Notes under the pieces: model-generated
Seen by the model: only the letters and a program-made list of their open reading frames with translations
Told to the model about the DNA's origin: nothing
Databases searched by the model: none
Made by a program: the position numbers and the translations under genes
Source of the DNA: an uncultured Gemmatimonadales bacterium
Lineage (GTDB): Bacteria; Gemmatimonadota; Gemmatimonadetes; Longimicrobiales; Gaopeijiaceae
Assembly (NCBI GenBank): GCA_963809895.1
Contig: CAWELD010000010.1
Coordinates: 512,001-576,000, forward strand
DNA length: 64,000 nucleotides
Reading direction: 5' to 3'
In this document: one piece after another, positions 1 through 49,939 of the stretch
Position numbering within the stretch: the first letter of the stretch is position 1
Layout of the letters: every line of letters starts with the position of its first letter

Positions 1-1
1 G

Positions 2-1238
2 ATCCAGGGTGCGGCGGGCTCCAGGCCTACGTTCATCCACGGACGTTCAGGTCGGCCTCGCCGCGGCGCCTCCGTCGGGCACGCTGACGCTCCGGAATCT
101 CCGGTTCGAGACCGCCTGGAACTTCGGCTCCGACAACCCGCACGGGTCCGCCCTCGTGGTCGGATTCGTCGACGGGACGAGGATGTCCTATGACCAGGTG
201 GTGATCGAAGACGTGGATCTGGATGTGCCGGACGGGCCTTCCGGGGGGCACCCGGGATCCGGGGCGTGGATCTTTCCGAGCCCAACGAACGGCGCTCACG
301 TCACGCTCCGGAACGTGACCGAGAGCGGTGGAACGTACGCTCTGTATGTCTTTGCCCCGGGCCCCGCGACCCGAGGCGCGTCGGTGCGCGTCGAAAGCTC
401 GTCGTTCTGGAACCCGGGACGTCCCGGCATCGTGGTCTTGGATGCATCGGGAAATTCCGCCCAGGGGGCCATCAACGACGTCGACATCGACAACGTCACC
501 GTGACAGCGGACCTCGGCGTCTTCGCCACGCGAAATAGTAGTGGCGTGGGGGGGCGTGTCGACGTCACGAACTCGACGTTCAGCGGCGGCGCGCTCTGGT
601 ATCAGAGCGGCGCGACGGGGCTCATCCAGGGCAACACGATAGACTGCGGCCATGCCGCCGCCTGCATCCGTGTCCGATCCGGCGCAAACACCAGCGCCCC
701 GGAGCCGTTGCGCGTGATCGGAAACCATCTCGTCGGCGCAACCCGGGACGCGCTGTGGCTCACGGAGCTGGACGCAGGGCCGTTCGAGATCCGCGACAAC
801 CAGCTCGACGGAAGCTGGGCGGGAGGGGACCGGACCGACCCCTTCAGCTATTCGTTCAGAGGCAGCGGCATCCGTGTGGAGAACACCCAGACGGCCGGGG
901 TCGTGACCGGCAATCTCATCACGGGAGCCTATCAGGCGATCTCCGTGGACGGTGGCTCGGCCGGTGTCTCGGCCCAGGACAATACCATCGCGACGGTCTG
1001 GTCGGGCGTGAGCGTGGCGTACGGCGGACAGCTGTCCGTGCACAGCAGTGACATCACCGACTACCTGGTGCCCATCGGAACGGACGGTGCGTTCGCCACG
1101 GGTGACCTCACCTGCAACTGGTGGGGAGACGCGGGCGGTCCGATAGACGTCGATCCGGGAATCGCCACGGGTGTCTTCACGCCGTGGGCGATCGCCTCGG
1201 TGGCGGGTACCGGCACCACGAGTTGCAGTGGCGGTTGA
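2..1238 (+). CDS. Right-handed parallel beta-helix (pectin-lyase-like) secreted protein, 5'-partial
   Basis: Repeating IxGNxI / IRDNxL / VTGNLI beta-helix turns and a C-terminal NWWGDxxGP motif. Runs in from the window edge; possible frameshift near nt 35-45. Confidence 0.7.
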   Translation, partial: SRVRRAPGLRSSTDVQVGLAAAPPSGTLTLRNLRFETAWNFGSDNPHGSALVVGFVDGTRMSYDQVVIEDVDLDVPDGPSGGHPGSGAWIFPSPTNGAHVTLRNVTESGGTYALYVFAPGPATRGASVRVESSSFWNPGRPGIVVLDASGNSAQGAINDVDIDNVTVTADLGVFATRNSSGVGGRVDVTNSTFSGGALWYQSGATGLIQGNTIDCGHAAACIRVRSGANTSAPEPLRVIGNHLVGATRDALWLTELDAGPFEIRDNQLDGSWAGGDRTDPFSYSFRGSGIRVENTQTAGVVTGNLITGAYQAISVDGGSAGVSAQDNTIATVWSGVSVAYGGQLSVHSSDITDYLVPIGTDGAFATGDLTCNWWGDAGGPIDVDPGIATGVFTPWAIASVAGTGTTSCSGG

Positions 1239-1403
1239 GCCGGCGCTGCAGGCATGAAGCGGTCGGTGGGATCGCGGTGCGTGACGTCCGACGGGCGGAC
1301 GGATCGCGCCGCGATCCCGCGGCCACCGGGATGGGGTGGCTGTCCAAGCGCACCGAAGGGCCTCGGTTGCGGATTTGGTGTTCACGAGGCTATTCGTGCC
1401 ACC

Positions 1404-2549
1404 ATGAAGAAGACGCTCGTCGCCTTTGTCGTGGCCATCTGGGCGCTGCCGGCGTCTGCGCAGCAGATGCCCGGGACCCTGCAATCACTCGACACGATCT
1501 ATCGGTTGGATGGCGAGGAGCTGGTGCTCGAAGCCGTGCCCACGGTGCTGCCGCTCCCGGATGGCTCCATGGTGCTGCCGCAACGAGACGCGGCCGAGCT
1601 GCGACGCTTCCTTCCCACTGGTCAGGAGCTGCTGCCGGCGCTGGGCGGAAAGGGGGCCGGGCCGGGCGAGTACGACCTCATCAACACCCTGGGGTGGAAG
1701 GGCGACTCGCTGTGGGTGTTCGACGGGCGCCAGAACCGCTTCACGCTCTATCCCGATTACGGCAGCGGCGAGCCCAACACCTACATGGGCGTGCATGCAG
1801 ACTCTCCTCCGGGCGGCGTCCTTCCCAATTCACCCCTGGTGCTTCCGATCGCGCTCCGACCGGACGGTGCCGTGCTCGGGCTCCTGGTGGGGCCTTCCTG
1901 GCCCACGGGCGACCAGGGTGAGGGCCAGACCATCGCATTGGTCGGTCCCGATCAGAAGACGCAGAGGGTCGTGGCGCGACTTGTCACGACGGCGGATGCC
2001 GAGAGAGACGGCAGCTCCACCTACGTGTTCCTGGATCCATTCGCCCATCAGCCGGTCCGAGCCGTGTCGGCCGATGGCGGATGGTTCGCGTTGGTCCAGT
2101 CACGAGCGCCGCGGCTGGATGGCCTCTTTCCCCAATCGATCCTCATGTTCGATGCCCAGGGGGATACTGCCTGGACGACCGAGATTATGGTGCGCGGAGC
2201 CGCGATTTCGGAGCACGCCAGACGGGAGCTCGTTGGGCAGGTGGCCGAGTTGTACCCGCAGGGCGTGCGCGGGCGGTATCTGAAGTGGATGGAGGGTGAA
2301 GACCGGGCGACGTTCTATCCGCCGGTTCGTGCGGCAGCCCTCGACATCGACGGCTCGCTCTGGCTCCAGCTCCGCGTGTCCGAGGAGAGCACGCAGGTTG
2401 TGCGAATCGGACCGGACGGTCGCCGGCCTTCCAGTGTTCCCGTGCCCGCCAACTCGATCCTCCGGGCGGTCCTGGGCCGACGCCTCTGGTTCGTGACCAG
2501 CGACGAGTTCGACGTCGAGAGCGTGGTGGCGGTGCGGGTCGGGGGGTGA
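1404..2549 (+). CDS. Secreted 6-bladed beta-propeller protein (TolB-like/NHL type) #1
   Basis: Sec signal MKKTLVAFVVAIWALPASA; LGGKGAGPGEY motif; DSLWVFD; C-terminal DEFDVESV. Confidence 0.75.
   Translation: MKKTLVAFVVAIWALPASAQQMPGTLQSLDTIYRLDGEELVLEAVPTVLPLPDGSMVLPQRDAAELRRFLPTGQELLPALGGKGAGPGEYDLINTLGWKGDSLWVFDGRQNRFTLYPDYGSGEPNTYMGVHADSPPGGVLPNSPLVLPIALRPDGAVLGLLVGPSWPTGDQGEGQTIALVGPDQKTQRVVARLVTTADAERDGSSTYVFLDPFAHQPVRAVSADGGWFALVQSRAPRLDGLFPQSILMFDAQGDTAWTTEIMVRGAAISEHARRELVGQVAELYPQGVRGRYLKWMEGEDRATFYPPVRAAALDIDGSLWLQLRVSEESTQVVRIGPDGRRPSSVPVPANSILRAVLGRRLWFVTSDEFDVESVVAVRVGG
1521..1610 (+). repeat. 90-bp repeat, copy A (inside propeller gene #1)
   Basis: ctggtgctcgaagcc...gagctgcgacgcttc recurs at 6675-6764 and 11136-11225. 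Confidence 0.95.
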
Positions 2550-2592
2550 CGATTCGCCGGGGACAGGCTCGAGCGACGCCCCCGCGGTTCCC

Positions 2593-2976
2593 CTATCCGC
2601 CGAAGGCCGCGGCCAGACCCCGATCGAAGGTGCGGATGCGTTCGATGTCGCGGCGTCGGCAGCAGGCGAGGTGAAGGAGGTCCCGGGCCGTGAGCCCGGG
2701 GTTCGCGCCCACGAGCGAGCGGGCCAGATCCACGTCTTCCCAATCCACGGACCAGATCTCGCCCACCTGGGTGCGCGCCAGCGTGAGCGCGGCATCCAGC
2801 GTCTCCATCCGGTTCAGCGGCAGGTAGGCGTGCCGCAGCTCCTGGAGCACCTCCGCGGAGGTGACCAGCGTTTCAGCTGAAACGCGCTCCCGCAGGAAGA
2901 ACGCCCGCGCCTCTTCCTTCAAGGGATGCTCCCGACCCACGGCGTACATGAAGACGTTGGTGTCGACGAAGATCAT
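2593..2976 (-). CDS. vapC: VapC PIN-domain toxin, orphan copy 1
   Basis: MIFVDTNVFMY...EVLQE...RDLLH...TFD PIN motifs; near-identical to 14412-14795. Confidence 0.85.
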   Translation of the reverse strand: MIFVDTNVFMYAVGREHPLKEEARAFFLRERVSAETLVTSAEVLQELRHAYLPLNRMETLDAALTLARTQVGEIWSVDWEDVDLARSLVGANPGLTARDLLHLACCRRRDIERIRTFDRGLAAAFGG

Positions 2977-3075
2977 GTCCCGCTTCCGCCGGAGCGCTGG
3001 GAGTCGCCGATGAGCCGCTTGTGCTGGTCCCAATCCGGTTCCCGGCCGTCGCACTCGTCGGGATTTGCGACAAGA
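2973..3075 (-). pseudogene. Deleted remnant of the antitoxin gene
   Basis: Matches the 3' end of 14792-15067 with a 12-nt deletion, then jumps to gggatttgcgacaaga, which lies upstream of the intact copy at about 15122-15137. Confidence 0.85.
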
Positions 3076-3156
3076 TCCTACGATCGGAGATGCTTGACTT
3101 TCTGATAGACTGCGACGCATGATAGAAGCCCCCCCCAAGGGACAGGGAGGAGAGAC

Positions 3157-3512
3157 GTGAGAGGGAATCGTGGGAGGCGGCTCGGATCCGCCACGAGCGC
3201 AGCACTGGCGCTGATGATGCTGGCTGGGTGTCAGGACGATCTGGCACTGGGTGCCAGGGTTCGCTGGCGTGTTTCTCGACCAAGATGGAAACGCTGTAGT
3301 GAGCCTCGCCCGGCCGGGCGCCGAAGCGGCTGCCACGGCATGGGTCCACGGGAGGGGACCGGAGCACGCACAACGTCCTGTGCGCTTCAGGTCGGTGGAG
3401 TTCTCGTTCGACCAGTTGAGTGACTGGCGTGATGAGGTGATGGCTCAGGCCGGGCCTGATGCGGTCCTCTTCGATGTCGACGAACTGAGGAACGGGGTGA
3501 CCATCGGCGTCA
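3157..3512 (+). pseudogene. Broken lipoprotein gene, probably the pro-region of a secreted serine protease
   Basis: Lipobox LAGC in one frame, followed in another frame by PGFAGVFLD...FSFDQLSDWRD...DVDELRNGVTIGV; no catalytic domain follows. Confidence 0.45.
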
Positions 3513-3582
3513 CCACCTTGCTTGGGACGATTTTCGCAGTATATACTCAAGATAGCGTATTGCCTCGATGATTGGGGGAAGC

Positions 3583-4410
3583 ATGTGGCATTCAGCGGTT
3601 CCCGTGCTCGTGCGTTCGGACCGGCTCAGGCAACGGCTTGTCCAGTTCTCCTGGCCAGCGGAAGTCGAGCTTCTCGTGTTCTCTGAGACCGCCGATCTGG
3701 CCAATCTCCCGGAGCCGTGCGGGGTCTTCTTGGTCGAGGACCAGGTTCTTCGCGAGTCGTCGATTCGTTCCGCGCTCGCTGCGTGCCTTCTCCGGGCCCG
3801 GACCTTGCGATGTATCTTGGTGCTCTCGACCTCGACCAGACCACTCTTCCTGCGGTCCCTCGCTGGCCGCGGCAGAGTCGCGGGGGTGCCTCCAGACGCG
3901 AAGACACTCCCGGAGCGGGTGATGCGAATGAAGTTACAATCATGGCGAGATCGCATGGTCTCCCGGATTCGGGCGGCACGCTACCCGCCCTTTCTCCTCC
4001 GGGAGGCCCTCGTTCTCTTGCTTCGGCAGGGTGTCTCAGAGGACTTTGGGCACCGCCTCCGCACCGTTACGGCGGTCGCCGAGAGACTCGGCGTCCGACG
4101 CGAGACACTGTCCCGTTTGAGCAGCGCGCATCGAATTCAAATACCGGACTTCGCAGACGCATGCCTGATCGTGGGGGTTCTCTCCGAGGCGGCCATTGCC
4201 AAGACCCCGTGGGTGGAGCTGTCGATTCGCCTGGGCTACGCTTGGCAGTCTGGCCTGGTCGAACTTGTGAAGCGTGGCCTCGGCGTTGCACCTGGCGAGG
4301 CTAAGCATGTTTGGCTTGGAAACCTCGCGCGCTGGTGGGAAACCACAGCGCTTGTCCCCGCTCTCCAGTCGACATCGATGAGGAACACGGACCTTGATCA
4401 CACCGGCTGA
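3583..4410 (+). CDS. AraC-like double-HTH transcriptional regulator
   Basis: TVTAVAERLGVRRETLSR and WVELSIRLGY...VKRGLGVAP resemble the two AraC HTHs. Confidence 0.6.
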   Translation: MWHSAVPVLVRSDRLRQRLVQFSWPAEVELLVFSETADLANLPEPCGVFLVEDQVLRESSIRSALAACLLRARTLRCILVLSTSTRPLFLRSLAGRGRVAGVPPDAKTLPERVMRMKLQSWRDRMVSRIRAARYPPFLLREALVLLLRQGVSEDFGHRLRTVTAVAERLGVRRETLSRLSSAHRIQIPDFADACLIVGVLSEAAIAKTPWVELSIRLGYAWQSGLVELVKRGLGVAPGEAKHVWLGNLARWWETTALVPALQSTSMRNTDLDHTG

Positions 4411-4527
4411 AGACCGCGCACGCGGAGCGTAACGCGGCTGCCACGTTCGGCGCACTCTTGAGGGGCCCAAGGAGCGCGCTACGTCGAAAGCTGCCCTCCG
4501 ATCTTTCACTGACACTGGGAGGTGCCC

Positions 4528-4809
4528 ATGTTTGCACGCCTGCGATTGACGCTGGCGCTTGGTTCTGTCGTGCTCGCGATGTACATGTTGATTGGTGCGA
4601 GTCCCGCGAGTGCGATCACCTTCACTAGCTTGGCGGAATGCACAGCGCACCCCTCCCAAAACACCTGCTGCCAGTGCGCAGGGGTCGGACCCAACCCTGA
4701 ATCTGGTTCAAAATTCTGCTATCAGAGTGACCCCGGTCAAGGCGGGACTGATTGGTGTAACGACGAGGTCTGTCCATACGAGGACCCACCCTGCGGTATC
4801 GTCGAGTGA
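4528..4809 (+). CDS. Small secreted Cys-rich protein A (93 aa, 8 Cys)
   Basis: RBS gggagg upstream; signal peptide ending ASPASA; mature part has 8 Cys; stop overlaps the next start (TGATG). Confidence 0.75.
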   Translation: MFARLRLTLALGSVVLAMYMLIGASPASAITFTSLAECTAHPSQNTCCQCAGVGPNPESGSKFCYQSDPGQGGTDWCNDEVCPYEDPPCGIVE

Positions 4810-6017
4810 TGTCGGCTCGGAACGGGGCACGGGAGTACGTCCCGTGCCCCGTTCATGCGAAGAGGTTCGCTAGTCGTCCGGCTGCATCGCAGTCCGGATT
4901 CCACCTTGCGGAGATCCTCTCGATCCTCGCCATTTTGATCTCGGTGGCTGGCTGCCAACCCGATCACTCACCCCTTTTTTTCGGGGGCGAGGAACCCCGC
5001 GACCTTGGCGCGGCGCTCCAAGGTGCCCCGTCCGTGAAATCGTGGGACCTCGTGGAGCAATGGGGCGCCCTAGATGGCCCACAAGCGTTCTCCGTGATCA
5101 ACGATGTCGCGGTCTCAAGAGACTCGGTTCTGGCAGTCGCTGACCGTTACACGTGCAGGGTGATCCTGATTGACATTCCGACTGACTCCACTTGGTCCAT
5201 CGGCGGCTGCGGCCGGGGCCCGGGCGAGTTCCAAGACATCAACGCCTTGGCGTTTCAGGGGAGCACCCGCTTGTGGCTGTCCGACCGAGGGCAAGGAAAG
5301 GTCGCTCTCGTCAATCTACGGACGGGAACGGTAGAGAAGGAGCGTCCACTGGATGCAATACTCCCAGGCCTAGGTGCGATAGCCGCACGCGAAATCGTCC
5401 CAATTCGCGGTGACACGGTGCTTCTAGGCTTGAAACTCCTTCCATCTCAGACCCGTGGGAGACTGCTCGTCGCCAAAGTCGACTTCGAGACAGAGACCCT
5501 CTTGAGACGATTCGTCGCTGATCCCGCGATGTCGGTTGACACCAGATGGTCGTGGGGCCCGAGCGTCCACATTTGCGGCTCACGAGATTTTTGGGCGGTT
5601 GCCAATGAGTGGACTTCGCAGGTGCAGGTCTACTCCATCGCCACGGGCCAGCTCCTGTCGAATGTAAACCTCCCGACTACTTGGTGGATCCCTGTCGACG
5701 ATGGAGCAGAGCCGAACAGTCTTATCGCTCCATCCCAGGATCCGAGAATACTGTGCACGGAGAGCTCGATAGCCATCAACCACAAGGAGTGGCTTGTGAT
5801 TGACCGTCGCCTCACGATTCCTCACTCACGACTGGTTCTGATGGACCCTAGCGGGACAATCAGGCTCGTCGACGAGGCGGAGGCCCCCACGCACGGCTCG
5901 CCTCACACACTAACCCTGGGTGCGATTTTGGGAGATCTACTCTTCGGATATACCACCAGCCTCTTCGACTACCCCATAGTGCGCGCATACCGTCTGCAGG
6001 AGCTTGAAGATGAGTAA
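4809..6017 (+). CDS. 6-bladed beta-propeller (lipo)protein #2
   Basis: Lipobox-like ISVAGC; IGGCGRGPGEFQDINAL motif; C-terminal YPIVRAYRL. Exact start uncertain. Confidence 0.7.
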   Translation: MSARNGAREYVPCPVHAKRFASRPAASQSGFHLAEILSILAILISVAGCQPDHSPLFFGGEEPRDLGAALQGAPSVKSWDLVEQWGALDGPQAFSVINDVAVSRDSVLAVADRYTCRVILIDIPTDSTWSIGGCGRGPGEFQDINALAFQGSTRLWLSDRGQGKVALVNLRTGTVEKERPLDAILPGLGAIAAREIVPIRGDTVLLGLKLLPSQTRGRLLVAKVDFETETLLRRFVADPAMSVDTRWSWGPSVHICGSRDFWAVANEWTSQVQVYSIATGQLLSNVNLPTTWWIPVDDGAEPNSLIAPSQDPRILCTESSIAINHKEWLVIDRRLTIPHSRLVLMDPSGTIRLVDEAEAPTHGSPHTLTLGAILGDLLFGYTTSLFDYPIVRAYRLQELEDE

Positions 6018-6666
6018 GCAGTCTAGGGTGAGGCGAGCGGCACTCGAATGGTCGCTGGTTTTGCTCATCGTCTGTCTAACGCTAGCGCTGTACATGGAAC
6101 GTCGGGATGCGGGCACTTTGGTGGCGTCCGCAGAACGGATCGTTAAGGAGCGAGATAAGGCGAACACGGAGCTTGAGCACCTGTCATATTTCTTCCGGTC
6201 CCAGGCCGCCCACATCGGTTCGCCCTTCGCCAGGGGCATCGACGTGGTTGGCGATACCGCGATCCAGTTCGTCCGGCCCCACGATGGCCTCTACTATGCG
6301 ATGCAGACGTCCTGCCCCGCTTGTTCACGGAATTTTCCATTCATCGAGCGGCTCCGGCGAGAATCGCCAGAGACCTTCGGCGTGTTCATCTTGTCCTTCA
6401 CTGATTCCGCCTCAGTGTTGCGCGAATATGCTCTCGAGCAACGCCTAGCTTCACCCGTCCTAGCGCAGCTTGCTGGAGGCATAACTGAGCTATTCCCCGG
6501 ATATGGAACGCCATTCGCCATCGCGGTGTTGGACGGGTGCATCGTCCTGACGGCGGCCGGCGAGTTCAGTCCGTCGGAACAGAGAGAGTTCGAGATTCTA
6601 GCGCGAGAACGACCCGTCCGTCGTTCAGAGCCCCCGACGAGAATGAAACCTGTGAGCGCATGCTAA
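6010..6666 (+). CDS. Membrane-anchored thioredoxin-fold protein (TlpA/redoxin-like)
   Basis: N-terminal TM helix; TSCPAC CxxC motif; GTPF cis-Pro loop; overlaps the upstream stop. Confidence 0.7.
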   Translation: MSKQSRVRRAALEWSLVLLIVCLTLALYMERRDAGTLVASAERIVKERDKANTELEHLSYFFRSQAAHIGSPFARGIDVVGDTAIQFVRPHDGLYYAMQTSCPACSRNFPFIERLRRESPETFGVFILSFTDSASVLREYALEQRLASPVLAQLAGGITELFPGYGTPFAIAVLDGCIVLTAAGEFSPSEQREFEILARERPVRRSEPPTRMKPVSAC

Positions 6667-6674
6667 CCGGGTAA

Positions 6675-6792
6675 CTGGTGCTCGAAGCCGTGCCCACGGT
6701 CCTGCCGCTCCCGGATGGCTCCATGGTGCTGCCGCAACGAGACGCGGCCGAGCTGCGACGATTCAGGGCGTGCCCCTGGAGGCCGTGGCGTG
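6675..6792 (+). repeat. 90-bp repeat copy B plus 28-bp tail shared with copy C
   Basis: Two synonymous differences from copy A; tail agggcgtgcccctggaggccgtggcgtg also at 11226-11253. Confidence 0.95.
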
Positions 6793-7800
6793 CGGTGTCT
6801 GCCCCTCGTGCACCAACCGGCGCATGGCCGAGGTGGCGGCACACCTCTGCGACCGGGTGATCCCTGCCGTGTCCGTGCGCCAGTGGGTCCTCTCCGTCCC
6901 GAAGCGGCTGCGGCCGCACCTCGCAATCCTCACGGAGCCCGACGCAGCAGATATGCTGGAGTTGCGTGGAACCGGTGGCTTCAGCGTCGACGGCTCCGTG
7001 CGCATCACCGCGCACGACCGGGCCGGGCTCGAGCGATGTCGCCCTCCGCCTCGCTCCGCTCGAGCTGCTCCAGCGGCTCGCCCGCCTGATCCCCCCTCCG
7101 CGACTGCACCGGCACCGCTACCACGGCGTCTTCGCCCCGCACTCCAGCTGGCGCTCGGACGTCGTGCGCTTCGCGAGGGAGACGACGCAGGACCCCGAGC
7201 CCCACGCCCTCCCCTCGCCTCCGGGGGCCACCCCCGCCCCCTGCGCCCACGGCGCTTCACGCGCCCGCTCCCGATGGGCCCGTCTCCTGGCCCGCGTCTA
7301 TGAGGTCGACCCGCTGCGGTGCCCGTCCTGCCATGGGGAGATGCGCGTCGTCTCCTTCCTCACCGACCCACCCGTCGTCCGCCGGATCCTCCGGCACCTC
7401 AACCTCCCCGAACATCCACCGCCCCTCGCACCGGCTCGAGGGCCGCCCCAGCGCGAGCTCCTCGCCGTCGATCCTCCCTCTCCCTGCGATCTCGGCCCTG
7501 CGCCTTCCTCCGGGCGCGACCCCTTCGACCAGAGCCTCCCCGGCGACGACGGCACTTGGTCCGCTTGAGACGGCTGCTGAAGCCTGGGGTGCGGCCGCCG
7601 CCTCGCCGAAGCCCGCCCATCCAGCCATCCAGATGCCGCATTCGCGCATCGCCCGCCTCCAGGGGTGCCCGACGCCCCTACCGGTTCATCCAGACCGCCC
7701 GCCTGCTGCCGTTCTGCCTGACACGAGCGCCTTGCCGACACGAAGCTCACCCCCGTATCCTGCGCCCAGGTGGTCCCACCCCGTTTGAACTTCCTATTCC
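6781..7800 (+). mobile_element. Internally deleted IS91/ISCR-family rolling-circle element
   Basis: Fragments GVCPSCTNRRMAEVAAHL...VRQWVLSVPKRLR, GGFSVDGSVRI..DRAGLER and LELLQRLARLIPPPRLHRHRYHGVFAP...WARLLARVYEVDPLRCPSC across two frames; HUH region missing; oriIS-like end. Confidence 0.85.
7782..7800 (+). other. oriIS-like terminus of the ISCR/IS91 element
   Basis: CGTTTGAACTTCCTATTCC resembles the ISCR oriIS consensus (GTTTGAACTTCCTATAC as recalled). It lies about 215 bp past the transposase stop, where base composition shifts. Confidence 0.75.
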
Positions 7801-7950
7801 TAGCAACGGTCTGATTACGCTGCACGAGGGCCGGCAGAGTGTTCAGGTGCGACGATGCCCCGAGCGGATCGTAGCCGACCTGCCGCTCCGTCCTTCTGTA
7901 TTCTCTGAGGTGGCATCACTCGTCTGAGTTTCCGCGTTCGAGGACTAGCT

Positions 7951-9036
7951 ATGCCAAAGATCTTTGCGTGGTCCGTCGTGCTTGGGCTGCTGCCCATCCA
8001 CACACTCGCTGCCCAACGGGTCGTCGTCGCCGGCCCTGCCCGATGCGATTCGTGTCGCATTACCGTGTCAAGGGAATTGCTCTTCGGAGACGACAGCGGT
8101 TCAGGTATCATTGAAGATCTCGGCTCCTGGGTGCGGCGCGGACCTCACGGAGAATATCTAGTGGTGGCGCGCGCAGGCTCAGCGCAGACCATCGCGGTCT
8201 TCGACTCTCTTGGACGCTTTCGGCAACGCGTCGGTAGGCCCGGACAGGGTCCCCGTGAGTTCCAAGACATTGTTCAAGTCCAAGTGGTTCACGGCACGCA
8301 TATCGCAGTGTTGGACCGGCTGAACATGCGCCTCTCTCTATGGTCAGCACAGTTCGCGCTGGAGGAGACTCATCCCTTGGGTGTCCTCTTGGGAAACGAC
8401 GCCTTCTACCTACCGGACGGATCGTTGATCTCCAATGGCCGCCAACCTACGCCGGCTCTTGTCGGTCGTCCAGCCATCCTGATAGACACAGCGGGGCAAC
8501 CCATAAGGGCGTTCAATGCTCATGGTGACCGGTACGTGGCGACTAATGAGGACCAAAGTCGCCGTCGCCTCGCGCTGAGTGGTGATACCGCCTTTTGGTC
8601 TGCTCATGTCGATCGATACGAGATGCATCTTTGGCGCCCGGGAGGACAGCTGCTGCTCACGTTGGACGGTTCGCTCGACTGGTTTCCGAATGTTGCAGAG
8701 GAACAGATTCCCGGCGAACCCTCACCTCCTCGACTCCTTGATCTGAGGGAAAAGGATGGCGTACTGTGGATGCTCGTAGCGGTAGCGGACAAAGACTGGA
8801 AGGACTCGGTTACTCCCGACGCAAAGAACTCCCGAGGTTATCACATTGTCGATTACCGCGGCTACCGGGATGCCATGCTTCACGCGGTTGATGTCCACTC
8901 GGGCGAGCTGTTGGGAGAGTATCGACTAGACGTCCCCGCATTCAACTTCGTAGATGACGACCACCTCGCGTACGTCGAAGAGGACGCCGACCTAGTTCCC
9001 CGTATGGTCATAGTGGCCTTCCACCTCTTGCGTTGA
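7951..9036 (+). CDS. Secreted 6-bladed beta-propeller protein #3
   Basis: Signal peptide; N-terminal CDSC; VGRPGQGPREFQDI motif; C-terminal DADLVPRMVI. Confidence 0.75.
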   Translation: MPKIFAWSVVLGLLPIHTLAAQRVVVAGPARCDSCRITVSRELLFGDDSGSGIIEDLGSWVRRGPHGEYLVVARAGSAQTIAVFDSLGRFRQRVGRPGQGPREFQDIVQVQVVHGTHIAVLDRLNMRLSLWSAQFALEETHPLGVLLGNDAFYLPDGSLISNGRQPTPALVGRPAILIDTAGQPIRAFNAHGDRYVATNEDQSRRRLALSGDTAFWSAHVDRYEMHLWRPGGQLLLTLDGSLDWFPNVAEEQIPGEPSPPRLLDLREKDGVLWMLVAVADKDWKDSVTPDAKNSRGYHIVDYRGYRDAMLHAVDVHSGELLGEYRLDVPAFNFVDDDHLAYVEEDADLVPRMVIVAFHLLR

Positions 9037-9145
9037 CTGCCTCTTGGACTCTATTAGACGAGGAGCGCGCACCCTACCCGGCTCACTTCATACTTTGTAC
9101 CTAGGGGGGAGGGGCTGTTAATATTCATTCAACGAAGAGGGACCT

Positions 9146-9535
9146 GTGAGAATCCTACTACTCGCATTGCTTCTGACGCCTTTCACAATACTCGGGCGTC
9201 CCGCCCCGCTCTCAGCCCAAGACCCGCACCCCTGCTGGGGCTGCGAATCGATTGGGGGCGCCACGCTCTGTGTGAATGAAGATGGCGACACCGGTCGCAA
9301 GCAGACTTGCACGCAATACTGGGAACCGATCCACTGCGAGTTCAGTCTTGAGAATTGCCCGACCTTCGTGTATGACGAGTTGCCCGCCGACGCCTCGGTG
9401 ACTGTCGGGGGGACATTCCTTGGCGTCGGCTGGCCCGGTGTTACCGAGCAAGACTTGGAAATAAACCCCTGCACTGGCTTGGTGCTGACCATTGCTGACT
9501 ACCCTGATGCACCGCCGTTGACGATGACCTTGTAG
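9146..9535 (+). CDS. Small secreted Cys-rich protein B (129 aa, 7 Cys)
   Basis: RBS gaagaggg; signal peptide ending PLSA; six clustered Cys plus one in the C-terminal NPCTG. Confidence 0.75.
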   Translation: MRILLLALLLTPFTILGRPAPLSAQDPHPCWGCESIGGATLCVNEDGDTGRKQTCTQYWEPIHCEFSLENCPTFVYDELPADASVTVGGTFLGVGWPGVTEQDLEINPCTGLVLTIADYPDAPPLTMTL

Positions 9536-9613
9536 CGAGGCCTGGCCCCTCCCCTTTCCTAGGTCTCGGCTGACGAGAAGATAGGTTGCACCACCCGAGG
9601 TTGCAGATGACTC

Positions 9614-10699
9614 TTGAGATACACTTCCACTTGGATAATCCTTTCCTCCACCTGCTTGTTATTCATCATGGGGACCCCCGTGAGGGGTCAAGCATTCGAT
9701 GCCAGTCTCTCCTGGGAGGTGGGTGCAGCAGAAGGTGGTCCTGAAGAGTTGTGGACTTTCATCCGAGATGCGGTCGTGCTCGACGGCACCATATTCGTAG
9801 TAGACTCGGGAGCGCCCGCCATCCGGCTATTTACTCTGGACGGGCAATTCCTGAAGACAATGGGGCGTGCAGGTAGCGGACCAGGCGAGTACCGCATCCC
9901 CCTTTCGGTTGAGACGGCCGGTGACCGTGTGGCGGTGCTAGACCAAACACAGGGTCGCATCTCCTTGTTCGATAGTGGGGGCCGCTATGTCGAGACTCAT
10001 AGGTTGGGTGCGACACCGGTTCGCGTCTGGGAACTCTCCTCAGGTTGGACGCTGTCTCTCTACCGTGGCTACGTCGACGGACAGCTTTCCCTCCTCACGG
10101 CTCGACGCGACGCTAGGCTTGACACACTGGCAACCTTTCCTAATGCCTATGTCGAGTTTCATGTAGCTCCAAGAGGGTACCCGAGCGTCCCGAGCGTCAA
10201 TATCGTTGGCGGCATGGATGGCGCAGTGGCGGTCTTGAATGACTCGACGGTAGTCCTTGTGGATAGTGCATCGATCTTGAGGGTCCTTCGACCTCGAGCA
10301 CGCGGGTGGGTCGAGACGCTTGCGGAGCGTTTGTCAGTACGCTCTGAGCCGCTCTCCGACGCAGATCGACGTGCAGCTGCCGAAGTGGTGCATGCGGCAT
10401 TCCGGGACGATCCGCGCCTAGTAGATCCCACCTTCCCGGAGAAGTGGCCAACGTGGATCGACTCTCACGCCACGAAAGGTGTGGTGTGGCTCCGGGAGGG
10501 AGGCATGAAGGGTTCGTTCCTCGGTCGCTATCCCGAACGGTGGTGGCTATGGCAGCCGGGGCGAGGGGCTGCCCTCGGTCTCATCCTACCTGCCGGGACA
10601 CGAGCGCTTCGCTTTCTTGGCACGAAGGGTGTGATCGCAAAGCGCCAGACATCATTGGGTATAGAGGTCCTGCAATTCTTCAGGATCACGCCGTCGTAG
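9614..10699 (+). CDS. Secreted 6-bladed beta-propeller protein #4
   Basis: Signal-like N-terminus; IFVVD; MGRAGSGPGEY motif; C-terminal TSLGIEVLQFF. Confidence 0.75.
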   Translation: MRYTSTWIILSSTCLLFIMGTPVRGQAFDASLSWEVGAAEGGPEELWTFIRDAVVLDGTIFVVDSGAPAIRLFTLDGQFLKTMGRAGSGPGEYRIPLSVETAGDRVAVLDQTQGRISLFDSGGRYVETHRLGATPVRVWELSSGWTLSLYRGYVDGQLSLLTARRDARLDTLATFPNAYVEFHVAPRGYPSVPSVNIVGGMDGAVAVLNDSTVVLVDSASILRVLRPRARGWVETLAERLSVRSEPLSDADRRAAAEVVHAAFRDDPRLVDPTFPEKWPTWIDSHATKGVVWLREGGMKGSFLGRYPERWWLWQPGRGAALGLILPAGTRALRFLGTKGVIAKRQTSLGIEVLQFFRITPS

Positions 10700-10700
10700 T

Positions 10701-11135
10701 GTGGCAGCCAAGAGAAGGACCCGCGTCATGCTGGGAGGCGTTGCCGTCCTGACTTGCGTTGCGCAGGCCTTGTCGGGTGCGGAGGTTGTCGGTCAGGCGT
10801 CAGCATCCGGGGCGGAGGCCGTTGCAGATGTTCTCCTTCGAGAGCTCGGCATCACCACCACCGCGGGCTCCTCACCAGCGCCGATGGACGGTTCGGGTCT
10901 CGCCTCTCTGCAATCAGCAATCACAGGGCGCACGGCACTTGCACACGCGGTGCGAGGGCTTCTCTCTATGTGGCCAATCAGGGAGTCCTGCGACTCCTCC
11001 CAACAACCGACTGAACGCTGCGGGGATAGAGTCTGGCTGTGGAGTGTATTCGGTGCCTCTGAGCCGGCCGATCTACTGAGGTCGGCCGAGCGCATCGCGA
11101 CGGTTCTGGCCTACTGGATAGACAATCTGCAGGAG
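10701..11135 (+). pseudogene. Truncated hypothetical secreted protein fused in frame to repeat copy C
   Basis: Hydrophobic N-terminus directly after propeller #4; the frame runs into the ELVLEAVPTV repeat. Confidence 0.35.
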
Positions 11136-11253
11136 CTGGTGCTCGAAGCCGTACCCACGGTCCTCCCGCTCCCCGATGGCTCCATGGTGCTCCCGCAGCG
11201 AGACGCAGCCGAGCTGCGGCGCTTCAGGGCGTGCCCCTGGAGGCCGTGGCGTG
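11131..11253 (+). repeat. 90-bp repeat copy C plus shared 28-bp tail
   Basis: Eight differences from copy A, all synonymous in the propeller frame. Confidence 0.95.
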
Positions 11254-11439
11254 TCGTACCGTCCTCACGACGCGAGTCCCGGCATTCTCGCCGCCGGACC
11301 CGCCCCGTCCGCCCCTTCCAGCGCCCGCGTCGTGCCCCCCACTTGGGGCATGCCTCGCACCAACCGCGCCCACCGGCAGCGCCGTCGCCCATACGAGACG
11401 CCGCGCTTTCCTGCGGCGGCTCAAGGGTTCTCCCCCTCG

Positions 11440-11622
11440 GCGGTGTATCGCCCGCTTCGCCCCGCCACGACGCTCCTCTACCGGGTCGTCCAGCATCACC
11501 TCAACACCTTTCTCGTGCTGCGCGAACGGGACACGGGCCGCTCCGTCCCGACCTGGACCGAGAAGGAGTTCAGGCAGTACCTCACCTGCGGGATCTTGGC
11601 CCACGGCTTCGCCCGCATCCGC
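11440..11622 (+). mobile_element. N-terminal fragment of an IS91-family transposase (Zn-binding domain region)
   Basis: VYRPLRPATTLLYRVVQHHLNTFL...EKEFRQYLTCGILAHGFARIR, typical of IS91/ISCR N-termini; truncated. Confidence 0.8.
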
Positions 11623-11726
11623 TGGGCGCGGAAGTCGTCGGCGCACTCGGCGGCGATGCGCATCGCGTCTTCGAACGGGAGGGCGGACTTGAACCGCACC
11701 ATGAGGACGAGGCTGGGGTTCGGCAC
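11623..11726 (-). pseudogene. 5' fragment of a YdhR-like monooxygenase gene
   Basis: ggag RBS and GTG, then LVLMVRFKSALPFEDAMRIAAECADDFRA; cut by the IS fragment. Confidence 0.4.
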
Positions 11727-11833
11727 GGTGCGGCTCCGGCGTGAGGGGACTTCGGCGCCCGCTTGCTGCCGGTGACGGAGGAGGGGCAACTTGTCCGACG
11801 AAGTGCCATCCGAAAAGACCCCCGGGAATCCCA

Positions 11834-12769
11834 ATGCGACCGCTTTCGCTCTCCGCCTCCCTCGTCCTCGCCGCCGCCTGGGCCGGTGCCGCACCGGGAG
11901 GCGTCGCCGCCCAGTCCGCCGGCACCCGGCAGCAGGGCTCCTCGCCCTCCGAGGTGCTCGCCGCCTCCACCGACGCCGACTGGCGGAGTCCGGACCCCGC
12001 GCGAACGGTCTACTTCGAGCTCGCCGGGGGGCGCGTGGTGGTCGAGCTCGCCCCGCGGTTCGCGCCGAACCAGGTGGCGAACATCGAAGCGCTCGTCCGG
12101 GCGGGGATGTTCGACGGGGGCCACGTGGTCCGGAGCCAGGACAACTACGTGGCCCAATGGACGGTGCGGGATCCCGCCGGTGGGACGGAGCCGCCGGCCC
12201 TGGTGGCGACGCCGCTGCCCGGCGAATTCGAGATCCCGGCCGCGGGCTCTCCATTCACGCCCCTTCCCGACCCGGACACGTACGCGCCCGAGGTGGGCTT
12301 GGTGGACGGCTTCCCCGTGGCGCGCGACCCGGCGTCGGGCGTGACGTGGATGGTCCACTGCTACGGCATGGTGGCGGAAGCCCGGGGCAACGACCCGGAC
12401 TCCGGCAACGGCAGCCAACTCTACGCCGTCATCGGTCAGGCGCCCCGCCACCTGGACCGGAGCGCCACCATGGTCGGCCGGGTCGTGTCCGGCATGGAGC
12501 ACCTCTCCACGCTTCCCCGGGGCACGGGGAGCCTCGGCTTCTATGAGACCCCCGGGGAGCGCGCGCCCATCGCGCGCGCGGTCATGGCCTCGGACGTGCC
12601 GGCCGCCGATCGCTCGGCGGTGCAGATCCTGCGCACCGACACGCCGACGTTCCAGGCGTATGTCGCGGCGGAGCGCTTCCGGACGGAAGCGTGGTTCCAG
12701 CATCAGGCAGGTCGAATCGACGTGTGCAACCTCCGGCTTCCTACCCGCGCGACGCCCACGGGGCGGTAG
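11834..12769 (+). CDS. Periplasmic cyclophilin-type peptidyl-prolyl isomerase
   Basis: Signal peptide; [53 protein letters not shown]. Confidence 0.85.
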
Positions 12770-12849
12770 GCCGGGGCCCGGGCGCGTCGGCAGGACCCGG
12801 CGTCGTTCGCGGATGCGTTCGCCGACGCACGTGGCGGCAAGGGACGTCC

Positions 12850-14298
12850 TCAGCTTCCCTCGTACAGCCGCTCCAGGTCCACCAACTCGACATCCGAACG
12901 CCCTGCTGTTCGGGCCCGGAGCGAGTCATCGAACCTCGCTCCGATGAGCATCAGGCGCGCGTGGGCTGCCCGCGGTCCCAAGGCGGCTCGAGCGCGTTCG
13001 AGCCTGTGGAGGTGGCCGGTATCGAAGGTCTCGCCGGCCTTGGCCTCTGCGATGACACGCACGATGCGCTCCGCTGGGGGGGCGCCGTCGGTTTCGTCGG
13101 CAGCCACCACCACGTCGAGCTGGTGGTCGGTGCCGTCGATCGTGGCAACCGAGGGGCCGACGTGTTCGGGATCTCCATCCAGGGTGTTCCGGCTCGCGTA
13201 GCGGCGCACCCAGGTCCTCGCGATCTCTTCGAACACCGGCCCACGGACCTGAGAGTCGAAGGTGGCGACGAGCCGCCGCGCCCATGTCTCCGCGGGCGCG
13301 CGGTCCCTGAGGAGACGTGCGTGGGGCTCGAGGACGGCGTAGTGGAATTGCAGGAAGGGATCGGCCAGCGCATAGAGTGGCCGTTGGGCGCGGATGGGAT
13401 CCTCGTGACGAGCGACGAAACCGGCGGCCACCAGGCGATTCAGGGCAGGCGCCAGGTTGGACACCGGGCGGCGGAGCCGGTTGGCGATGGAGCCGGCCGT
13501 GACCGACCCGGTAGCGATGGCACCGAGAATGCTGTGATGCATGGACGCGCTCGCCGCAGCCAATGTCGGGTCCTCAGCGAGCAAAGTGTTCGCTTCGTGG
13601 TGGAGGGTGGCCGCCGGCGAGAGAATCCGTCGTGAGATCCAACGGTCGAAGTCCGCCTCGTCTTCGGGCAGGTCGTGGTCGACCATGTCGGTCGCATACC
13701 CGATCACCCCTCCTATGACCGAATACAGCCGGACGGCCAGCGTCAGATCGGCGTCGGGCAGCATGCGCTCCCGGGCCCCCCGGAAGTCCAACGGCTGCAT
13801 CACGAGCTCCAGCCCGGCGCGACCTCGCAACGGCGCTTCCCCCGCCGTCAGCGATCGCATCATCGCCACCGCGGACCCGCACAACACGAGGCGGCTCCGT
13901 CCCGGTCCGCTCCGGCGGCTTCCAGGCCCCAGGGCGCGGGCCACGATCGAGTCGAGGGCGGGGTCTCCCTCGAGCAGATAGCCGAATTCGTCGATCACCA
14001 CCGGGATCGGCTCGTCGGAGCCCAACGCCAGCAGCAGCTCCACGGCCTCGCTCCAATCACCGAGGGCCAGGCGGCCTGTCGCCTGCCAGGCACCGAGGGC
14101 CTCGCCGAGCCGGGCGAGATGGACGGCGGGCTCGCCGCGTGTGGCTTCCCAGTAGAAGCCTCCACGCTCGCGCGCCATCGCCTCCAGCAGCGTGGACTTG
14201 CCGATCCTCCGGCGACCGTACACCAGGCCCAGCGTGGGCCGAGTCACGTTCGAATCCAGGAAGCCCGCCAGGGGTGCGCGGCTCGTGGTCAGATCCAT
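12850..14298 (-). CDS. ATPase_2 (archaeal-type AAA) + wHTH + DUF234/PD-(D/E)XK-like protein
   Basis: YGRRRIGKS Walker A; VVIDEF Walker B; LCGS; GPVFEEIAR; QLDVVV...IAEAK. Confidence 0.8.
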   Translation of the reverse strand: MDLTTSRAPLAGFLDSNVTRPTLGLVYGRRRIGKSTLLEAMARERGGFYWEATRGEPAVHLARLGEALGAWQATGRLALGDWSEAVELLLALGSDEPIPVVIDEFGYLLEGDPALDSIVARALGPGSRRSGPGRSRLVLCGSAVAMMRSLTAGEAPLRGRAGLELVMQPLDFRGARERMLPDADLTLAVRLYSVIGGVIGYATDMVDHDLPEDEADFDRWISRRILSPAATLHHEANTLLAEDPTLAAASASMHHSILGAIATGSVTAGSIANRLRRPVSNLAPALNRLVAAGFVARHEDPIRAQRPLYALADPFLQFHYAVLEPHARLLRDRAPAETWARRLVATFDSQVRGPVFEEIARTWVRRYASRNTLDGDPEHVGPSVATIDGTDHQLDVVVAADETDGAPPAERIVRVIAEAKAGETFDTGHLHRLERARAALGPRAAHARLMLIGARFDDSLRARTAGRSDVELVDLERLYEGS

Positions 14299-14326
14299 GC
14301 CTCTTTCCGGGCCGAGAGGGGGTCTA

Positions 14327-14377
14327 TACTCTTCGCTAGAATACTATGATTGTTAATAGTATGCCAGCATGGAGTAT
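14327..14377. promoter_or_regulatory. AT-rich inverted repeat upstream of the ATPase gene
   Basis: atactat-N8-atagtat nested within atactc...gagtat. Confidence 0.4.
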
Positions 14378-14411
14378 TTGCCGTTGACTGACCCAGGGCC
14401 CCGCGGTTCCC

Positions 14412-14795
14412 CTATCCGCCGAAGGCCGCGGCCAGACCCCGATCGAAGGTGCGGATGCGTTCGACGTCGCGGCGTCGGCAGCAGGCGAGGTGAAGGAGGT
14501 CCCGGGCCGTGAGCCCGGGGTTCGCGCCCACGAGCGAGCGGGCCAGATCCACGTCTTCCCAGTCCACGGACCAGATCTCGCCCACCTGGGTGCGCGCCAG
14601 CGTGAGCGCGGCATCCAGCGTCTCCATCCGGTTCGCCGGCAGGTAGGCGTGGAGCAGCTCCTGGAGCACCTCCGCGGAGGTGACCAGCGTTTCAGCTGAA
14701 ACGCGCTCCCGCAGGAAGAACGCCCGCGCCTCTTCCTTCAAGGGATGCTCCCGACCCACGGCGTACATGAAGACGTTGGTGTCGACGAAGATCAT
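14412..14795 (-). CDS. vapC: VapC PIN-domain toxin, copy 2
   Basis: PIN motifs; ATGA overlap with the upstream antitoxin. Confidence 0.9.
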   Translation of the reverse strand: MIFVDTNVFMYAVGREHPLKEEARAFFLRERVSAETLVTSAEVLQELLHAYLPANRMETLDAALTLARTQVGEIWSVDWEDVDLARSLVGANPGLTARDLLHLACCRRRDVERIRTFDRGLAAAFGG

Positions 14796-15067
14796 GTCCC
14801 GCTTCCGCCGGAGCGCTGGGAGTCGCCGATGAGCCGCTTGTGCTGGTCCCAATCCGGTTCCCGGCCGGGCTCTCGGGCGTCGCACTCGTCGAAGAAGCGC
14901 TTCAGCTCGCTCTGGGTCTCGAGGCCGCGGCGACCTTCCGCGGCCTGCGCCCGTTCCCGGGCAGCTTCCCGTAGCCAGGCGCTCAGCGTCTTGCCCTCGC
15001 GCACCGCCATGCGCCTGAATCGCTCCTTCTCAGCGGCGTCGAGGACGAGATGAATGCGCTCGGTCAT
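14792..15067 (-). CDS. RHH/CopG-type antitoxin (VapB-like)
   Basis: ERIHLVLDAAEKERFRRMAVREGKTLSAWLREAA; coupled to vapC. Confidence 0.8.
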   Translation of the reverse strand: MTERIHLVLDAAEKERFRRMAVREGKTLSAWLREAARERAQAAEGRRGLETQSELKRFFDECDAREPGREPDWDQHKRLIGDSQRSGGSGT

Positions 15068-48740: not shown

Positions 48741-48906
48741 CGCGACGCTGCCGCACAGTGGGGGGCGCGGGGGCGGCGACTGCCGCCGGGTGGGGGGCGC
48801 GGGGGCGCCGACTGGCCCAGAGGGTGGCGAGCTCGGGGGCGCCGGGGGCGACAGAGGGTGGGGGGCGCGAGGGCGGCGACTGCCGCCGGGCTCGCGCGGC
48901 CGGCGA

Positions 48907-49619
48907 CTGCCGTCAACCCTGCAAGCGCGCGGTTTTTCGCGGCGCCTGCTGGACCGGGGGCGATAATTGCCGTGAACTGTGCGAGCGCCGAGCGGGGTCG
49001 AATCGCGCGCGTGTTTCGCGGCGATTATTGCCGCGAAGTCTGCATCGCCGCTGCCGAGGGCGCCCGCTGCTCGGTTGACGGCAGCGAGGACGTCGACTGC
49101 CGCAGGGTGGGGGGCGCGAGGGCGGCGGGGCCGCAGAGGGTGGCGGGCGCGAGGGCGTCGACTGCCGCCGGGCTCGCGCGGCCGGCGACTGCCGTCAACC
49201 CTGCAAGCGCGCGGTTTTTCGCGGCGCCTGCTGGACCGGGGGCGATAATTGCCGTGAACTGTGCGAGCGCCGAGCGGGGTCGGATCGCGCGCGTGTTTCG
49301 CGGCGATTATTGCCGCGAAGTCAGCATCGCCGCTGCCGAGGGCGCCCGCTGCTCGGTTGACGGCAGCGAGGACGTCGACTGCCGCAGGGTGGGGGGCGCG
49401 AGGGCGGCGGGGCCACAGAGGGTGGCGGGCGCGAGGGCGGCGTGCCGTCAACCCTGCAAGCGCGCGGTTTTTCGCGGCGCCTGCTGGACCGGGTGCGATA
49501 ATTGCCGTGAACTGTGCGAGCGCCGAGCGGGGTCGGATCGCGCGCGTGTTTCGCGGGGATTATTGCCGCGAAGTCTGCATCGCCGCTGCCGAGGGCGCCC
49601 GCTGCTCGGTTGACGGCAC
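48907..49619. repeat. Array of three 178-bp units with terminal inverted repeats (48907-49084, 49189-49366, 49442-49619)
   Basis: Near-identical units bounded by (c/g)tgccgtcaacc...ggttgacggca(g/c), separated by G-rich spacers. Confidence 0.92.
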
Positions 49620-49939
49620 CCGCCGCCGGCCGGCCGGTCCACACGCCCGCCGCCACCGCCGGCCTACCCACTCGCCGCCCGCGGTCCGGCCCGCCCGCCC
49701 CCGCCGCGCTCGCCGCCCCGCCCCCGCCGCCTCGCCGGCCCGCCCGCCCCCGCCGCCTCGCCGCCCCGCCCGCACGTCTACCCACCCGCCGCTTGTGGCC
49801 CGCGCTCCCCGGTCTGCCCGTCCCCCGCTCGCCCCCGCCCGCCGCCCCACCCACCCGCCGCCCGGCCCGCGGCACCCTCGATCCATCCCTCTTGAAATTC
49901 GATATGAAACCATACTGAATTCTCTCCGTAGTGGCGTTC

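Follow-up and report, generated by a model that had tools for sequence, protein, structure and literature searches.

Secreted cysteine-rich miniproteins of two families paired with six-bladed propellers in an uncultured Gemmatimonadales bacterium

In Bacteroidota, NVEALA small proteins (Pfam accession PF14055) are encoded near DUF5128/TolB-like propellers and redoxins, in neighbourhoods that are uncharacterised. Methylamine dehydrogenase clusters (mauBEDA) encode a cysteine-rich small exported chain, a propeller, a CPxC thioredoxin and sometimes MauE. We analysed a 64,000-nucleotide (nt) stretch of an uncultured Gemmatimonadales genome (assembly GCA_963809895.1, contig CAWELD010000010.1, positions 512,001 to 576,000), the whole of which is called the window; positions given without a contig are window positions. 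Lineage matches bore mixed names, one of them a Longimicrobiales match at 54%. It holds two gene cassettes in which a small secreted cysteine-rich protein, or miniprotein, stands next to a propeller. Cassette 1 carries miniA (type A) and a thioredoxin-like gene, and cassette 2 carries miniB (type B), which consists of a cysteine-rich head and a tail.

As in the NVEALA neighbourhoods, a small secreted cysteine protein adjoins a PF17170-type propeller, and the model of prop4, the propeller downstream of miniB (predicted local distance difference test, pLDDT, 84), has Bacteroides BF0058 (4RAA) and NHL domains as its top structural matches. Unlike NVEALA, the heads described here have six to eight cysteines and the type B tail has an odd one. 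Neither miniA, miniB nor 11 paralogues matched PF14055 or the NVEALA motif; a PF14055 genome search returned 0/31, but likewise missed all control genomes. SOQ1/NHLRC2 proteins, in which a thioredoxin-like domain is fused to an NHL propeller, combine the same two folds, and a profile of the partner propellers matches SOQ1 weakly (E 1e-4). In the cassettes, by contrast, these folds are encoded by separate genes, type B mostly lacks a thioredoxin, and the miniprotein is the constant partner. The cassettes differ from mauBEDA in their six propeller blades and hypervariable small chain. No MauG was seen, alignments of both miniprotein families lack a conserved Trp pair, and the window proteins matched no NCBIfam amine-dehydrogenase model and no MauD model.

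Bacteroidetocins (class IIf bacteriocins) are disulfide-bonded secreted peptides with their own thiol oxidoreductase; the paper on them, whose main text does not contain the word ‘propeller’, describes clusters with a double-glycine leader, a peptidase ABC (ATP-binding cassette) exporter and no immunity protein (PMC6671954). By analogy, and on the features given there, they offer a precedent for a cysteine-peptide toxin with a dedicated thiol oxidoreductase. The likeness applies to type A only, since such an enzyme is mostly lacking for type B, and the miniproteins differ in having a Sec-type AxA-Q leader, a propeller partner and, in the window cassettes, no exporter. Polymorphic toxin–immunity systems with orphan arrays, as described for acquired interbacterial defence genes (AID and recombinase-associated rAID; 10.1101/471110) and for the Vibrio cholerae type VI secretion system (PMC5361080), likewise place a variable gene before a coupled partner and also pile up partner genes alone in recombinase-headed arrays. 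The cassettes differ from these in having no known toxin domain or delivery machine and in drawing all partners from one propeller family. Our gene sets fail a defining feature of the NVEALA, bacteroidetocin, SOQ1/NHLRC2 and mau systems alike. The literature searched, outside which lay most subscription papers and supplements, contained no published description of them and nothing relevant on the DUF5128 family or NVEALA.

Open reading frame (ORF) calls placed the two cassettes and a further propeller gene where the original prediction had them, with all eight ORFs on the + strand:

1404-2549, + strand: prop1, a secreted six-bladed propeller without a miniprotein (an orphan), the source of a 90-nt tag in the transposon remnants described below
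3583-4410, + strand: probable helix-turn-helix (HTH) regulator, weakly AraC-like; 3568 is an alternative start
4528-4809, + strand: miniA, a type A secreted miniprotein with eight cysteines and no tail; frame C-x7/8-CC-x-C...C...C-x4-C-x6-C
4809-6017, + strand: prop2, a predicted lipoprotein propeller with lipobox VAGC and a TGATG overlap with miniA
6010-6666, + strand: thioredoxin-like, a membrane-anchored TlpA/ResA-fold protein with CPAC
7951-9036, + strand: prop3, a secreted DUF5128-like propeller that lies upstream of miniB and has a CxxC at the N-terminal side
9146-9535, + strand: miniB, a type B secreted miniprotein with seven cysteines, comprising a six-cysteine head (~residues 25-72) and a tail with a GT motif and C109
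9614-10699, + strand: prop4, a secreted NHL-type six-bladed propeller and the likely cognate partner of miniB

The cassette genes are AT-richer than the genome, with a guanine-plus-cytosine (GC) content of 58–63% against ~69%, in line with the prediction. The regulator is probably an HTH protein, but its AraC label is weak (HTH_18 E=0.075, below the cut-off). The prediction had also counted prop1 as part of the system. We rejected it as a cassette member because no miniprotein accompanies it. A copy of vapC (2593-2976, - strand) stands between it and cassette 1. PADLOC matched 0/8 proteins, and promoter and terminator scans gave chance-level results only.

The window holds two unrelated miniprotein families. 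Types A and B align at the leader junction only, and a single origin was rejected for lack of any alignment beyond it; the predicted single system with a single catalyst is not supported as such. Neither family has a Pfam, NCBIfam or PDB match. A fold search with miniB gave no PDB match at E≤0.001 and none with Z≥2, which does not establish a new fold, and the ESM Atlas held no usable match for type B (one 0.76 match for a miniB relative was below use).

Although a single-sequence search with miniB returned only itself, a profile from a five-member seed identified 58 type B representatives, nearly all of 116–168 amino acids (aa). Their alignment shares the AxA-Q leader, six cysteines, the GT motif and a seventh cysteine. 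With a wider profile, type B was detected in 51/314 genomes from the family and in 35/251 sampled across the phylum, all in one class, several other families of which are represented; these counts are lower bounds, as few candidates were scored per genome. We identified a co-oriented propeller just downstream at 33/33 type B loci from 32 other genomes, two matches confined to the signal peptide having been dropped, and at 15/18 further loci (48/51 loci from other genomes combined). Of the three misses, one has its propeller upstream, one has only a 270–330 aa accessory family below it and one has none within 1.2 kb. Behind the closest miniB relative (51%) stands a propeller related to prop4 at 43%.

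Mature type B proteins (n=82) contain seven cysteines in 60 cases, nine in 19, 11 in one and six in two. The number is odd in 80/82, and the series 7/9/11 implies that cysteines are gained in pairs while one remains odd. The miniB head is modelled with a pLDDT of ~95 and the tail with ~55. For type B head loops, the ratio of nonsynonymous to synonymous change (pN/pS) is 0.84, compared with 0.53 in the tail and 0.48 in the propeller, from 12 overlapping pairs near saturation. These rates suggest that head loops drift nearly freely and that the tail evolves more slowly. Miniprotein and propeller diverge together, in support of the prediction: their distances correlate at 0.44 (maximum 0.23 in 2000 permutations), and their nearest neighbours agree in 26/44 cases versus three expected. 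The type A thioredoxin-like gene was found in 0/20 ten-kb type B loci, and MauE with a redoxin in 1/20. No transporter or TonB-dependent receptor recurs beside the pairs in these 20 loci (Pfam scan of 26 neighbours), and no membrane transducer, anti-sigma factor or kinase recurs in the loci inspected.

Type A is rarer. A 98% identical copy of miniA is present in another assembly, and a single-sequence search with the thioredoxin-like protein also returned one 98% copy. The TlpA/ResA assignment comes from profile matches to CycY/DsbE/ResA structures (E 3e-4 to 7e-3). Relatives of this protein are of two kinds. Generic TlpA proteins (WATWC/WASWC-type) have a propeller nearby at 0/16 loci. Members of a full-length subfamily (CPAC, CPVC, CRAC, CPRS, CPWS) are encoded beside propellers and miniproteins of six to eight cysteines that carry the miniA frame; their motif is CxxC or, in four type A relatives, CxxS. 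The type A profile identified 5/314 genomes, this one among them; four belong to the seed or are close to it, and one (G189) is new. A thioredoxin-like gene and a propeller are adjacent in 5/5. Profiles and neighbour genes together support the predicted conserved miniprotein families tied to propellers, at 48/51 type B loci and in 5/5 type A genomes. A dedicated thioredoxin-like family, the candidate for the predicted disulfide catalyst, accompanies type A but mostly not type B.

The same linkage is visible genome-wide. We filtered for short ORFs that begin with a hydrophobic segment and encode four or more cysteines, criteria set after the window genes had been seen. Of the 68 ORFs returned, 29 overlapped a called gene and were removed. 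Of the remaining 39 candidates, 14 have a propeller within 500 nt, on the same strand in 14/14; flanks of this kind make up 2.3% of the genome. Without the two window genes the count is 12/37. Linkage of miniproteins and propellers is far beyond chance. An extracytoplasmic function (ECF) sigma factor or HTH_18 regulator stands directly upstream in at least six of ~15 miniprotein loci of this genome, and ECF sigma/HTH regulators also occur near several loci of other genomes. No homology between the window regulator and those of other cassettes could be demonstrated. The prediction had made it a conserved part of the system, and we rejected a regulator family common to the cassettes because they have regulators of several kinds that could not be shown to be homologous.

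Two other kinds of small protein were seen in this genome (G000). Four loci (G000:C3:1056402, 1569122, 2644479 and 816368) encode another kind of long miniprotein, which has a single cysteine and a helical tail and is adjacent to a propeller in 3/4. At G000:C3:823216-823718 (L004), two tandem six-cysteine secreted peptides, both ending DCGVQ, lie opposite a propeller.

With a profile derived from paralogues in this genome, we identified 107 propeller matches at E<1e-8, fragments counted. PF17170 (cut-off 22.9 bits) is passed by prop3 (27.7) and prop4 (40.3); prop1 and prop2 have no Pfam match and match the genome-built profile at 1e-55 and 6e-34. The motif GxxGxGP[GR]E[FY] is present in all four window propellers, as predicted, and in 58/107 matches genome-wide. 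It therefore marks the family only, and we rejected it as a marker of the system. The positions that reach 90% conservation across 44 partner propellers are all Gly or Pro apart from one Trp, which speaks against an enzyme role, and no polar residue, including His, Tyr or Arg, is invariant. An N-terminal CxxC-like pair precedes the first blade in prop3 (7951-8090) and in four or more paralogues, of which two adjoin miniproteins.

An unnamed family of 270–330 aa (L008:3599-4528, L001:8507-9448, L011:2689-3576 and others; alignment A11) has a conserved LQxLADLxSDxR motif and is weakly propeller-like (hhalign probability 54%). It adjoins type B cassettes in 5/5 copies of this genome and at many other loci; in the window, prop3 occupies its place. 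This family is possibly catalytic, because its polar residues are better conserved than those of the main propellers. At the second type B locus (L001:12872-14056), four propellers are interspersed with a DUF885-like (HExxxH) protein and with a 150-aa copy of the N-terminus of that protein.

Most of the 107 propeller matches have no miniprotein. We identified 41 in two co-oriented blocks, each headed by an integrase/recombinase gene: one runs from G000:C10:600939 onward behind a clear integron integrase (388 bits against a cut-off of 265) and the other from G000:C3:3211567 onward behind a shorter, divergent recombinase. A loose scan for attC-like sites (RYYYAAC..GTTRRRY) gave 10.8 per 100 kb behind the C10 integrase and no excess in the C3 block; a strict scan found no site, not even behind the integrase. 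A close relative of prop4 (G000:C10:604264-605370; 33% over 234 aa) stands alone between attC-like sites behind the C10 integrase and falls in the same clade of a FastTree tree, which has many long branches and was used for this clade only. Neither block contains a propeller with a filter candidate within 500 nt. The loose scan found 0 sites in window positions 1-15000, and the window pairs fail the integron-cassette test. The predicted exchange as cassettes was not borne out for the window pairs, given the absence of attC-like sites from the region and the nature of its transposon remnants.

Gene order, tight linkage, cysteine frames, rates of change and predicted folds are the basis on which we tentatively read the miniprotein as a polymorphic effector directed against bacteria and the propeller as its cognate partner, in a binding, immunity or carrier role. 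An effector with a cognate partner fits best because the miniprotein is rarely without a propeller, the propeller is often alone and the head is the fastest-changing part. The arrangement of toxin–immunity genes, in which a variable gene directly precedes its partner and is never alone, appears at 48/51 type B loci and in 5/5 type A genomes. Both proteins would be exported by Sec, and the head would fold into three or four disulfides. Type A may be oxidised or reshuffled by the adjacent membrane TlpA-fold protein; type B may use the unpaired cysteine of its own tail, perhaps also as a docking site on the propeller. The variable head would then act on an outside target, and lone propellers, including those in integron cassettes, would be gathered as orphan protection against the miniproteins of other strains. 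Type A combines an even cysteine number with a thioredoxin and type B an odd number with a tail and mostly no thioredoxin, which suggests that the tail cysteine replaces the catalyst. The pro-region cysteine of bovine pancreatic trypsin inhibitor (BPTI) is an analogue for such a folding role. A fuller version, which we consider somewhat unlikely, is a phylum-wide conflict system. Knottin-like miniproteins of two independent origins would each have a personal NHL propeller, a type B folding and docking tail with a free thiol would replace the thioredoxin, and ~90 lone propellers per genome, partly integron-stocked, would form an acquired antidote library.

Several observations weigh against an effector. 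Neither window cassette contains an outer-membrane exporter or peptidase transporter, and 3/51 type B loci have no detected downstream propeller. The heads of type B have a median net charge of -5 and are negative in 94% of cases, an acidity unlike that of typical antimicrobial peptides, which are cationic. The upstream ECF sigma or HTH regulators of many cassettes fit signalling or a stress response equally well. The 12 pN/pS pairs overlap and are near saturation, and co-divergence of the pairs also follows from mere linkage and shared descent. Finally, most orphan propellers fall in clades without miniprotein-linked members, so the propeller family may have its own miniprotein-independent job. 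The acidic heads, the missing exporter and the many orphan clades leave some probability to readings of the pair as a platform, a signal or a maturation unit.

The strongest of these, itself somewhat improbable, is a two-part envelope binder in which the propeller would be a stable platform and the miniprotein an exchangeable, tail-docked head that captures outside ligands (metal, peptide, surface or phage) without toxicity. Such a binder is consistent with a tail that changes at the propeller's rate while the head drifts, with a tail modelled poorly alone, as expected if it folds on its partner, with acidic heads suitable for cation binding, and with the many propellers found without a head. 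The absence of a tail from type A argues against it, as does the lack of any recurrent transporter or TonB-dependent receptor beside the pairs.

It is unlikely that the pair is a peptide signal and its receptor, in which a strain-specific miniprotein would be sensed by the propeller with feedback to the adjacent ECF sigma or HTH regulator. The directly upstream regulators in this genome, and several elsewhere, would suit such a circuit, but they are of different kinds without demonstrable homology, many loci have none nearby, and no membrane transducer, anti-sigma factor or kinase recurs.

We give similarly little weight to a maturation or redox unit, in which propeller and thioredoxin-like protein would form a split SOQ1/NHLRC2-like thiol machine with the miniprotein as substrate or redox buffer. 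The dedicated TlpA-fold neighbour of type A, which contrasts with the 0/16 generic TlpA loci, the weak SOQ1 match and the N-terminal CxxC of prop3-type propellers point in this direction. The commoner type B, however, lacks such a thioredoxin at 20/20 loci (MauE with a redoxin being present at one), four type A relatives have CxxS in place of CxxC, and near-neutral head loops are unexpected in a housekeeping redox part.

An enzyme pair is very improbable. It would resemble methylamine dehydrogenase, with a cysteine-rich light chain, a propeller as heavy chain and MauD/MauE, or a peptide-amidating propeller of the PAL type. The parts list is similar in outline, one locus has MauE and a redoxin, and the partner-propeller profile matches PAL (3fvz) at E 2e-10. 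The reading is close to refuted because no catalytic residues are conserved. Neither miniprotein family has a conserved Trp pair, His, Tyr and Arg are nowhere invariant in the propellers, and there is no MauD model match. That the small ORFs, known from DNA alone, arose by chance or as shadow frames among the broken and duplicated gene pieces of a patchwork island is scarcely credible given their invariant cysteine frames, synonymous changes and fixed position over dozens of genomes.

The island itself is bracketed by vapBC genes and contains remnants of an insertion sequence common region (ISCR) element:

2580-3048, - strand: partial vapBC duplicate with vapC whole (PIN domain) and the antitoxin cut; left bracket of the island
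6675-7750, + strand: 90-nt prop1 tag and an internally deleted ISCR (IS91-like) element (NF052416 and Y2_Tnp matches)
11131-11644, + strand: second prop1 tag and the 5' part of an ISCR element, interrupting ORF 10701
14399-15067, - strand: intact vapBC pair; right bracket of the island

Direct repeats (2580-3048 and 14399-14867, 98.7% over 469 nt) flank the whole island. ISCR/IS91 transposase remnants lie behind each cassette (6770-7568 and 11425-11637), each preceded by or fused to the same 90–95 nt piece of prop1 (source 1521-1610). On a contig of another public run (X2), the 5' end of a prop1-like gene is followed by the entire ISCR element in order. Judged from this contig, the element once sat within a prop1 gene, after ...TTC, and left copies of the 90–95 nt tag where it inserted at two further sites. 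Data from four DNA runs covered the ISCR pieces and their flanks but not the cassette genes. This genome contained no intact ISCR transposase. The array is punctuated by ISCR remnants, not by a cassette recombinase; the pieces are insertions and give no demonstration that ISCR moved the cassettes. Elsewhere in the window, 3093-3513 is a fragment of the gene at G000:C3:1978493-1979021, and 48748-49661 contains three GC-rich tandem copies of ~282 nt with shorter repeats inside.

Pairing of miniprotein and propeller gives a testable reason for the presence of ~100 DUF5128-like propellers in one genome. The split between an odd-cysteine tail and a thioredoxin allows a direct test of two folding routes for such proteins. 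If the miniproteins are effectors, these bacteria would offer a natural library, large in size, of antibacterial scaffolds stapled by disulfides, each with its matched binder; if the propeller is a platform, the pairs would represent a bacterial variable-head binding system.

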